The notes under the pieces were generated by a model. It was not told the DNA's origin. It made no database searches and saw only the letters and a program-made list of their open reading frames with translations. From assembly GCA_038869515.1 (NCBI GenBank), contig JAWCQZ010000008.1, forward strand, positions 12,633 to 76,632: a stretch of DNA of 64,000 nucleotides. The letters run 5' to 3'. A program made the position numbers and the translations under genes. The stretch comes from Halobacteria archaeon (lineage in GTDB: Archaea; Halobacteriota; Syntropharchaeia; JACQPP01). This document shows positions 17,445-20,354 of this stretch, one piece after another; within the stretch, counting starts at the first letter, position 1, and each line of letters opens with the position of its first letter.

Positions 17445-17507
17445 TTTTTTATACTAACCAATGGTTAGTGCCAATCACTAACCATAGGTTAGTGGCAAAG
17501 GAGGTGA
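17445..17507 (+). promoter_or_regulatory. hsp20-cdc48 promoter: TATA box plus two tandem CTAAC-N5-GTTAG palindromes and an SD
   Basis: TTTTTTATA at 17445-17453. The first inverted repeat CTAACCAATGGTTAG sits at 17454-17468 and the second CTAACCATAGGTTAG at 17478-17492. SD GGAGGTGA at 17500-17507 precedes the ATG at 17518. Confidence 0.55.
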
Positions 17508-17517
17508 ACACCGAACA

Positions 17518-18096
17518 ATGGCAATCCGCAACCCGTTCCGAAGTTCCCGCGACAGCGACGACTCCTGGGAGGACCTCTGGGAGGGCGACCTCTTCGGGGA
17601 CCTCTTCAGCGACTTCGACGACCGTTTCCGCCAGATGCGCCGCCAGATGGCGCGCCTGTTCGAGCGGGCCCGGCGGGGCGAGTTGTCCCCCCCCGAGCAG
17701 GGGGGCCCCTACGTTTACGGCTGGACCTTCCGGCTCGACGACGGGAAGCCCCAGTTCCGGGAGTTCGGCAACGTGAAGGGCCTCACCCTGCCTCAGCGGG
17801 CCGGTCTCGAACCCGGCTACAGGGAGCCCCTGACCGACCTCATCGAAAGCGAAAAGACCCTCTCGGTGACCTTCGAGATGCCGGGCATCGAGAAGTCCGA
17901 CATCGACCTTCAGGTTGTTGAGGAGGGGCTCGTCGTCAAGGTGGACAAGAAGGACCGCAAGTACTGGAAGGAGGTCTCCCTGCCGCGCCCGGTGAAGACG
18001 GACTCGGCGAAGGCGACCTACAAGAACGGGGTCCTCGAAATCACCCTCGAACTGGCGGAAGCGCAGCCCAAGGGCAAGAAAGTCAAGGTGGAGTAG
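17518..18096 (+). CDS. hsp20: Small heat-shock protein Hsp20/alpha-crystallin family
   Basis: 192 aa with an alpha-crystallin domain (…[28 protein letters not shown]…KNGVLEITL…). Confidence 0.9.
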
Positions 18097-18143
18097 GGGC
18101 GCGGGCATCGTTCCCCCCCCTACTCCCCATTTTTCCGCTCACC

Positions 18144-20354
18144 ATGTCCCGAAAAACCGAACCCAGGAAGGAAGTCACCGCCAAGGTGAAGGAGGCCAAG
18201 CCCCAGGATGTCGGCCGGGGCATCGCCCGCCTCGACCCCGAGCTGATGAGCCGTCTCGGCCTGGAAACGGGAGACGCCGTCTCCATCCGGGACCGGCGCT
18301 CCACGGCGGCCCTCCTCTGGCCCGGCTACCCGGAGGACGAAGGCACCGGGACAATCCGCATCGACGGGGCCCTCCGCCGCAACGCGGGCACGACCCTCGA
18401 CGGGAAGGTCCGCGTCCAGCGCCGGGAGGCGAAGCCCGCCGAGGCCATCGTCCTGGCGCCGGTGGAGCATCTTCGAATCTCCGGCGGGGAGGACTACCTC
18501 CAGAACCTCCTCGACGGCCGCGTGGTCGCCAAGGGGGACATCGTTGAAATCAGTGTCATGGGCCGCAAGCTCGACCTGGTAGTGGCCTCCGTTCGCCCCT
18601 CCGCGGAGGTGGTCCTGGTCGGGCAGCAGACCCGGGTGGAAATCAGCGACAAGCCCACGGCCCAGGCGTCGAGGGTCCCCCGGGTGATTTACGAGGACAT
18701 CGGCGGCCTCCGGGAGGAGGTCCGGCGGGTCCGGGAGATGATTGAGTTGCCGCTGAAGCACCCGGAGGTGTTCGAGCGGCTCGGGGTGAAGGCGCCCGCG
18801 GGGGTCCTGCTCTACGGGCCGCCCGGCACCGGCAAGACCCTTCTTGCGAAGGCTGTGGCCAATGAATCGGGCGCCGGCTTCTACACCATCGGGGGGCCCG
18901 AAATCATGAGCAAGTTCTACGGCGAGAGCGAAGAGCGTCTCCGCCAGGTCTTCCAAGAGGCGGAGAAGAACGCGCCCGCCATCATCTTCATCGACGAACT
19001 CGACTCCATCGCCCCCAAGAGGGACGAGGTCGCGGGGGAGGTGGAGCGGCGCGTGGTGGCCCAACTCCTGAGTCTCATGGACGGCCTCAAGGAGCGGGGC
19101 AGAGTCGTGGTCATCGGCGCCACGAACCGGCCCGACTCCCTCGACGAGGCCCTGCGGCGCCCGGGCCGCTTCGACCGGGAAATCGAGTTCGGCGTCCCCG
19201 GCACCGAAGGGCGGCTGGAAATCCTGCAAATCCACACCCGCGGGATGCCCCTCACGCCCGACGTCGACCTGAAGTCCCTGGCCGCGAAGACCCACGGCTT
19301 CGTGGGAGCCGACCTTGCGGCCCTCGCCCGGGAGGCGGCAATGCGCGCCGTGCGCCGGGTCCTGCCGAGGATAGACCTGGACAAGGACCTGGTTCCCGGG
19401 GAGGTCCTGGAGAGCCTGACGGTCACCAAAGCGGACTTCGAGGAGGCGTTCCTTGAGATGGAGCCTTCCGCCATGCGGGAGGTGCTGGTCGATCGCCCGA
19501 GCGTCAGCTGGGAGGACATCGGGGGCCTCGACGAGGCGAGGCAGGAGCTGGTCGAAGCCGTCGAGTGGCCCCTCAAATACCCGGAGGTCTACGCCTCCTT
19601 CTGCGGCGAGGCCCCGAAGGGCATCCTGCTCTACGGGCCGCCCGGGACGGGCAAAACGCTGCTGGCCAAGGCGGTCGCCGCCGAGAGCGAGGCGAACTTC
19701 ATCAGCGTGAAAGGACCGGAGTTCCTCTCCAAGTGGGTGGGGGAGAGCGAGAAGGCGGTCCGGGAGGTCTTCCGCAAGGCGCGGCAGGCCGCCCCCTGCG
19801 TGGTCTTTTTCGACGAGATTGACGCCATCGCCCCGACCCGCGGCGGCTCCGCCGGAGACGCTCACGTGACCGAGCGGGTCATCAGCCAGATTCTGACCGA
19901 GATGGACGGCCTGGAGGAGTTGAGAGGGGTGACGGTCATCGCCGCCACCAACCGGCCCGACATGATTGACCCGGCCCTCCTGCGCCCGGGCCGCTTCGAT
20001 CGCGTGGTCCACGTGCCGCCCCCCGGCCGGAATGCGCGGGAGAGAATCCTCGCCATCCACACGAAGGGGCGACCTCTCGCCGGGGACGTCGATTTGGTCT
20101 CCCTGGCCGCCAGGACGGAGGACTGCACAGGCGCCGAACTCGCCGCCCTCTGCCGGGAGGCCACCATGATGGCCATCCGCGAGCACATGGAGGCGGGGGG
20201 AGACCCGAAGGACCGGAAGCGGCTGGAGAAGGCTCGCATCGGAGCCAAGCATTTCGAGGCGGCGCTGAAGCGAGTGCGGACCCTCTCCCCGGACGAGACG
20301 GCACGCTTCACCGCCTCGATGAACCGGTTCCGCCGGGCCCCGGAGGCGGCCTGA
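18144..20354 (+). CDS. cdc48: AAA+ ATPase Cdc48/VCP (two AAA domains)
   Basis: 736 aa with an N-domain followed by two Walker A sites (GPPGTGKT twice) and SRH regions. Confidence 0.95.

Follow-up and report, generated by a model that had tools for sequence, protein, structure and literature searches.

A probable Phr/HSR1-type operator arrangement at the hsp20-cdc48 promoter of an uncultured high-G+C archaeon

To our knowledge, Phr and HSR1 are the only archaeal heat-shock regulators that have been characterised, and both come from cultured hyperthermophiles. Here, the promoter of an hsp20-cdc48 gene pair from an uncultured archaeon was analyzed and compared to the promoters controlled by these two repressors. 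The gene pair lies in a 64-kb stretch (64,000 nucleotides; hereafter the window) of a metagenome-assembled genome (MAG; contig JAWCQZ010000008.1). Its promoter carries two inverted repeats of the form CTAAC-N5-GTTAG, one touching the putative TATA box and the other lying over the predicted transcription start. We propose, with a probability of about 0.7, that a winged-helix repressor of the Phr/HSR1 family (arCOG01684), encoded elsewhere in the genome, holds this promoter off until heat shock. The proposal draws on the sites, their conservation and their position relative to the TATA box, on the identities of the genes, and on the association of the motif class with hsp20 promoters and Phr-like genes in related loci.

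In Archaeoglobus fulgidus, the hsr1 and hsp20-2 promoters carry CTAAC-N5-GTTAG downstream of the TFB-recognition element (BRE) and TATA box, where it is bound by the repressor HSR1, and hsr1 heads an operon containing hsp20, according to two secondary reports (PMC2396416, PMC9133787). HSR1 and Phr of Pyrococcus furiosus both belong to arCOG01684, which has been reported in most Euryarchaeota (PMC5852551). Their common targets are hsp20 and the Cdc48/VAT AAA+ ATPase (PMC5852551, PMC10653856). Phr is described as binding across the start site, along about 29 bp, and as keeping RNA polymerase from the TBP/TFB-promoter complex. An earlier note on this DNA had equated the repeats with the HSR1 motif and had named a Cdc48-type AAA+ ATPase and hsp20 as the HSR1 targets, and these reports bear out both statements.

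Two palindromes at the hsp20 promoter

The repeats are CTAACCAATGGTTAG at 17454-17468 and CTAACCATAGGTTAG at 17478-17492. They are the sole exact matches to CTAAC-N5-GTTAG on both strands of the window, and no match was found in 100 dinucleotide-preserving shuffles of it. The HSR1 operator sequence is present before hsp20 in two exact copies. The earlier note had located the repeats correctly, and both are longer than it had claimed, forming perfect palindromes of 17 bp (site 1) and 19 bp (site 2). Its placing of them right behind a TATA box also holds, as site 1 shares one base with the box at 17445-17453. The features of the locus are listed below by position and strand; L004 denotes the closest relative, described further on, and UTR stands for untranslated region.

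17267..17339, minus strand: tRNA-Gly(GCC) gene, divergent from hsp20, 114 bp upstream
17440..17453, plus strand: core promoter, a BRE-like purine-rich GAAAG followed by the putative TATA box TTTTTTATA (17445-17453)
17453..17469, unstranded: site 1, perfect 17-bp palindrome ACTAACC-AAT-GGTTAGT; its first base is the last TATA-box base; about -24 to -8 of the predicted start
17476..17494, unstranded: site 2, perfect 19-bp palindrome CACTAACC-ATA-GGTTAGTG; about -1 to +18 of the predicted start
17477, plus strand: predicted transcription start, an A preceded by C, 24 nt 3' of the last TATA base, placed by the usual archaeal TATA-to-start spacing
17500..17506, plus strand: Shine-Dalgarno sequence GGAGGTG, 11 nt 5' of the hsp20 ATG; conserved in L004; unpaired in the predicted 5' UTR fold
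17518..18096, plus strand: hsp20, small heat-shock protein of 192 amino acids; Pfam HSP20 (E = 1.6e-11) and ArsA_HSP20; NCBI name 'archaeal heat shock protein Hsp20'
18097..18143, plus strand: hsp20-cdc48 spacer, 47 bp, G+C-rich, without an AT-rich promoter-like box; T5 run at 18131-18135
18144..20354, plus strand: cdc48, VAT-type double-ring AAA+ ATPase of 736 amino acids; Pfam CDC48_N, CDC48_2, two AAA and two AAA_lid_3 domains

The genes behind the operators are of the kinds controlled in the Phr/HSR1 regulon, an hsp20 gene and a gene for a Cdc48/VAT-type AAA+ ATPase; the Pfam domains agree with the identities that the earlier note had given them.

Centre to centre, site 1 and site 2 are 24 bp apart. 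When up to two mismatches to the 15-mer were allowed, the window gave five matches as compared to 4.0 expected, so there are no further credible operator sites in the window and the pair is unique there. With up to three mismatches to the 17-mer, the two sites and one weak site (43383-43399) were recovered, against a chance expectation of 0.25. This near-match (15-mer at 43384) lies 5' of an argininosuccinate lyase gene and is within chance expectation; it was rejected as a third operator.

The window has a composition of about 70% G+C, and TTTTTATA (17446-17453) is its single occurrence of TTTWTATA, with 0.01 expected. Judged by sequence, the hsp20 promoter looks like the strongest TATA promoter of the region. 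From the usual archaeal TATA-to-start distance, transcription is predicted to begin at about 17477. The last TATA-box base is also the first base of site 1, and site 2 starts 24 bp past the box, a placement that fits an overlap of site 2 with the predicted start. An operator that abuts the TATA box and covers the start had been read as fitting repression of the Phr/HSR1 type, and the arrangement is consistent with that reading, given the predicted start.

The closest relative of the locus is a contig, L004, which encodes an Hsp20 81% identical to that of the window and has the same flanking genes. Both palindromes are in the same place, as ACTAACCAAAGGTTAGT and ACTAACCATAGGTTAGT. Site 1 has 16 of its 17 bases as in the window, the single change falling in the central spacer, and site 2 is identical. 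The TATA box is kept as CTTTATATA. From the TATA box to the Shine-Dalgarno sequence, none of the 28 half-site positions has changed as compared to 5 of the 19 others (Fisher p = 0.0076), and these five changes lie in the central spacers, the inter-site spacer and the tail. The region 5' of the TATA box has diverged heavily, with many substitutions and indels. In L004 (2470-3465, compared to 17518-20354 of the window), no cdc48 follows hsp20, and cysS is directly 3' of it. The absence of cdc48 from this position indicates a recent gain or loss of cdc48, with the operator pair staying in place.

These comparisons bear on whether the repeats have a regulatory role at all. They could have arisen by chance, or they could be what is left of an integration site or mobile element beside the tRNA-Gly gene (17267-17339). 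As a matter of general knowledge, tRNA genes are common integration targets, and this one is only 114 bp away. However, none of the 100 shuffles contained a match, the half-sites are perfectly conserved in L004 while the flanks have diverged, no integrase or mobile-element genes are adjacent to the locus in the window, and distant lineages have the motif class at this promoter position as well (see below). Repeats without a regulatory role are scarcely credible here.

The palindromes could instead act as RNA, in the form of 5' UTR hairpins that serve as a thermometer or stability element of the hsp20 mRNA. It is generally known that bacterial small-hsp genes are commonly under 5' UTR thermometers. 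In the modelled folds, the predicted transcript would start with a 9-bp hairpin made by site 2, and both sites, if transcribed, would give a structure of -28 kcal/mol (z = -3.8). However, any palindrome in DNA can pair with itself once it is RNA, which makes the stems uninformative by themselves, and site 1 touches the TATA box and is therefore untranscribable from this promoter. The fold from the predicted start is ordinary (z = -1.36), with 18 of 200 shuffles folding as well. In this fold the Shine-Dalgarno sequence GGAGGUG and the AUG are essentially unpaired, which does not correspond to a thermometer of the ROSE or fourU kind. Compensatory changes were not available because the stems are identical in L004. 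In addition, five related loci (L063, L064, L066, L074 and L076) have their second palindrome 5' of the TATA box. An RNA element is very unlikely as compared to the DNA operators of a repressor.

Palindromes and Phr-like genes in related loci

Promoters were compared across 80 metagenome loci with hsp20 homologs and several more obtained by exact-protein look-up. The exact core TAAC-N5-GTTA had been expected upstream of most homologs and was found upstream of hsp20 in none of the 80 metagenome loci. Drifted palindromes were found just past the TATA box, with the sequences TGTTAC-N5-GTAACA, ACAAC-N5-GTTGT and GTTAAC-N5-GTTAAC. By locus, the drifted palindromes lie at about -78 and -46 from the hsp20 start in L063, L064, L066, L074 and L076, at -33 in L061 and L134, and at -33 in L078. 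In the case of the L063 group, two GTTAC-N5-GTAAC copies are 32 bp apart and stand on either side of the TATA box, not past it.

An unbiased motif test was performed with all gapped palindromes of 3+3 bases and gaps of 1-9, using 76 non-redundant upstream regions from which the window and L004 were excluded. AAC-N5-GTT was the top-ranked palindrome, present in 14 of the 76 upstream regions as compared to 2.0 expected; none of 200 shuffles gave more than 6. In the 120 bp before hsp20, the density of perfect NNNAC-N5-GTNNN palindromes is 32-fold that of the remaining sequence of the loci. Similarly, TAAC-N5-GTTA with up to one mismatch occurs at 2.36 per kb upstream of hsp20 and at 0.25 per kb elsewhere (9.4-fold, p = 1e-11).

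The single operators of L005, L061, L134 and L140 begin 21-22 bp past their own TATA boxes, over the expected start. Site 2 of the window begins 24 bp past its TATA box and is therefore the counterpart of the ancestral operator. No counterpart of site 1 was found at that position in the more distant relatives. The pairing of hsp20 with cdc48 recurs in L005, L059, L113, L143 and L145. In L005 (4245-5427) and L006 (354-1536), a gene for TFB (TFIIB) and an open reading frame (ORF) of 76 amino acids are divergent from a single-operator hsp20-cdc48 pair, an arrangement that recalls the heat-inducible TFB paralog reported in P. furiosus (PMC2396416). In L139 (5115-9618), hsp20 heads a grpE-dnaK-dnaJ cluster and has no recognisable AAC-N5-GTT palindrome upstream, so not every hsp20 promoter of the clade uses the element.

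In seven related loci a regulator gene lies beside hsp20 or cdc48, and in each instance it encodes a Phr-like HTH_20 protein. The arrangements are as follows.

L008, L061, L134, L140: hsp20, then directly an HTH_20 (Phr-like) gene
L143, L145: regulator gene and rpoK just upstream of hsp20-cdc48
L092: regulator-cdc48-hsp20, which is the A. fulgidus gene order

The regulator of L008 matches the Phr structure PDB 2p4w with E = 3.9e-14. All seven regulator-linked loci have an AAC-N5-GTT-type palindrome past the TATA box of the first promoter. In the case of L145, one such palindrome is also found 24 bp past the TATA box that serves the regulator gene, a position that autoregulation would call for. 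The promoter of L092 has the sequence tttatatattatcaacaCTAACaaaagGTTAG and contains the exact CTAAC-N5-GTTAG. Four overlapping TAAC-N5-GTTA units are found there (1860-1916) with a strict 14-bp period, the first of them being the exact CTAAC-N5-GTTAG, and this phased array is unlike the 24-bp pair of the window. Independently of the window, L092 is evidence for an association of the exact HSR1 string with a Phr-like gene, cdc48 and hsp20. In the Thermoplasmata-type loci L008 (3610-4430), L143 (6001-6915) and L145 (8001-8942), rpoK, the gene for RNA polymerase subunit Rpb6, is immediately 3' of the Phr-like gene, a linkage that is conserved among them.

The putative regulator and the host genome

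Several results weigh against a Phr/HSR1-family repressor, and most of them concern its gene. In the window, no Phr/HSR1 homolog was found by tblastn with three family members (best E = 0.73) or with a hidden Markov model of 120 family members, whose top match was an Lrp/AsnC protein (10 bits, E = 0.014). An identical Hsp20 protein is on record from MAG GCA_038869095.1 (NCBI label 'Halobacteria archaeon') and from the Logan assemblies SRR27730036 and SRR27730037; a further 7.5 kb of this MAG, beyond the right end of the window, holds no regulator and no operator site. The regulator is thus putative, with no family gene in the 71.5 kb of this genome that were examined. Moreover, a recognisable site is present in only about 15-20% of hsp20 homolog promoters. 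Finally, exact tandem pairs occur at unrelated genes in bacteria and Crenarchaeota, so the string alone is not diagnostic of the regulator.

Homolog searches with the family profile and with a GC-biased subfamily member gave no family member traceable to GCA_038869095.1. Two candidates with a matching source pattern, P0216 and P0268, were rejected as the regulator of this genome, both being from other MAGs. As the earlier note had observed, the hsp20-cdc48 operon of the window contains no regulator gene, and there is none adjacent to it either. The winged-helix (wHTH) genes of the window are all generic, encoding an Lrp/AsnC protein, an HTH_3 protein and a 98-amino-acid wHTH protein (9623-9919). 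The last of these had been suggested as a candidate regulator, a suggestion that does not stand: its TrmB/MarR/HTH_24 matches are below the Pfam cut-offs and its PDB matches are weak and of the Lrp type, and it is no relative of Phr or HSR1. The ORF at 6200-7036 on the minus strand gave faint matches and is a DUF2203 protein. A regulator encoded away from the operon would have a parallel in P. furiosus, whose phr gene is likewise unlinked from the genes it controls.

The distribution of the bare motif was assessed by a scan for the tandem CTAAC-N5-GTTAG-N(4-20)-CTAAC-N5-GTTAG in 185,579 species genomes, a collection that does not include the source MAG. The scan gave 50 loci, mostly bacterial operators or repeat arrays, and no hsp20, cdc48 or Phr-like gene was found near any of the 50. 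Four crenarchaeal genomes, Sulfolobales HS-7 and Metallosphaera javensis among them, share the near-identical tandem CTAAC-ACCCY-GTTAG-TAWA-CTAAC-ACCCY-GTTAG (L019 1424-1457, L025 5875-5908, L033 6759-6792 and L050 1099-1132), unrelated to hsp20 or cdc48; in L025 and L050 it lies at the start of a gene of about 350 amino acids for an archaeal ATPase-type protein. In L009 (1158-1205) and L040 (3603-3650), which belong to Nanoarchaeota and Woesearchaeota, a TATA-like box precedes two copies of ACTAACTGSCAGTTAGTATG spaced by about 33 bp, and tblastn found no hsp20, cdc48 or Phr-like gene in either locus.

These observations leave room for a different factor of the lineage, outside the Phr/HSR1 family, that converged on or took over the same half-site. 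Such a factor would be compatible with the absence of family members from the 71.5 kb examined, with the occurrence of the same string in unrelated contexts (bacterial promoters, a crenarchaeal ATPase-type gene) and with the wide drift of half-sites between lineages. However, wherever a regulator gene is adjacent, in seven related loci, it encodes a Phr-like HTH_20 protein, and in L092 the exact motif occurs together with such a gene. arCOG01684 has been reported in most Euryarchaeota (PMC5852551), and the wHTH genes of the window are generic (Lrp/AsnC, HTH_3 and the sub-cut-off 98-amino-acid wHTH). We consider a different factor unlikely. Two further departures from the described systems can be considered together. 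The lineage could lack any arCOG01684 gene, with CTAACC-N3-GGTTAG being read by an undescribed heat-shock regulator; less radically, site 1 could add occlusion of TBP/TFB to the RNA polymerase block at site 2, giving a two-step cooperative thermal switch of a kind undescribed for Phr or HSR1. That either of these holds is, in our estimate, quite unlikely.

With a Phr/HSR1-family repressor as the preferred reading, the promoter would work as follows. At normal temperature, repressor dimers would bind both ACTAACC-N3-GGTTAGT palindromes. By analogy with Phr, repressor bound to site 2, over the start, would keep RNA polymerase off the TBP/TFB-promoter complex. Site 1 (-24 to -8), as an extra copy, would also hinder TFB/TBP or polymerase contacts, leading to tighter or cooperative repression. 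Upon heat shock the repressor would lose DNA binding and the promoter would fire, and the derepressed hsp20(-cdc48) transcript would encode a holdase and an unfoldase. In this scheme, which regulator acts and whether the genome encodes it, how the promoter responds to temperature and what site 1 contributes are inferences, as are the transcription start and co-transcription.

Co-transcription of hsp20 and cdc48 is plausible because the spacer between them contains a T5 run but no AT-rich box. This run (18131-18135) could be a weak archaeal terminator that reduces read-through into cdc48. Upstream, the neighbours of hsp20 are the tRNA-Gly gene and a gene for a HAD hydrolase. A second AT-rich box, ATATTAAAA (17401-17409), which L004 has conserved, lies between tRNA-Gly(GCC) and hsp20 and probably serves as the promoter of tRNA-Gly(GCC). 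The window also contains a gene for an MC1 chromatin protein (15187-15471). The proteins of the window (22 confident genes) are non-acidic, with (D+E)/(K+R) = 0.86, and the host is therefore no classical salt-in halophile, despite the label 'Halobacteria archaeon' and 70% G+C. It is probably a non-halophilic relative.

Comparison with known systems

The same operator logic, an AAC-N5-GTT-centred palindrome just past the TATA box of hsp20 or cdc48, is found in uncultured high-G+C and Thermoplasmata-type lineages. Half-sites drift between lineages (CTAAC, GTTAAC, GTTAC, ACAAC), and placement of the regulator gene varies, being in the operon, beside it or absent from the neighbourhood. The comparison set can be used to study regulator-operator co-evolution, and it offers a simple means of predicting the heat-shock regulons of metagenome-assembled archaea. 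For annotation of the window, its value lies in marking a strong, probably heat-inducible and repressor-controlled promoter; nothing known is overturned.

HSR1 (AF1298) of A. fulgidus resembles the present case in its half-sites and their spacing, in the position of its operators downstream of the BRE/TATA, and in its targets, a Cdc48-type AAA+ ATPase and hsp20. The two differ in gene order. The A. fulgidus operon, as reported, is hsr1-cdc48-hsp20, with the regulator first and autoregulated, whereas the window has hsp20-cdc48 without a linked regulator. The HSR1-type architecture, with the regulator followed by cdc48 and hsp20, is not found at the window locus. P. furiosus Phr does not have the regulator-first order either, which makes this order a mark of the A. 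fulgidus operon rather than of the family. In the window, two full palindromes are spaced by 24 bp, and one of the two is in contact with the TATA box. Its host differs as well, being an uncultured MAG of about 70% G+C.

Phr (PF1790) of P. furiosus and Thermococcus kodakarensis is an ArsR-like winged-helix repressor that acts at a palindrome over the start by blocking RNA polymerase recruitment and has hsp20 and VAT among its targets, and its gene is unlinked from hsp20 and VAT, as at the window locus. The TAAC-N5-GTTA of the window fits T-N2-C-N5-G-N2-A, which we take to be the core of the Phr consensus. The Phr sites, described as TTTA(-10)/TGGTAA(+1)/AAAA(+10), differ from those of the window in their outer sequence. 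In P. furiosus, hsp20 and VAT are each reported to have their own site and start, whereas one two-site promoter appears to serve both genes in the window.

The Thermoplasmata-type loci L008, L143 and L145 share with the window an hsp20-cdc48 pair or a lone hsp20 behind a palindrome about 21-24 bp past the TATA box, with an AAC-N5-GTT centre. They differ in having the regulator gene (with rpoK) adjacent, half-sites of GTTAAC or ACAAC and not CTAACC, and one site as compared to two. A more distant parallel, from general knowledge, is the bacterial HrcA-CIRCE system, in which a heat-labile repressor acts at an inverted repeat over the promoter or start of chaperone genes, with derepression on heat shock. 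However, its protein family, operator and transcription machinery are unrelated, and its targets are groESL and dnaK, not hsp20 and cdc48. The comparison supports a Phr/HSR1-type operator arrangement at the hsp20-cdc48 promoter of an uncultured high-G+C archaeon, which is a known kind of system; it is modestly peculiar in that a second operator abuts the TATA box and no regulator gene is linked to it.

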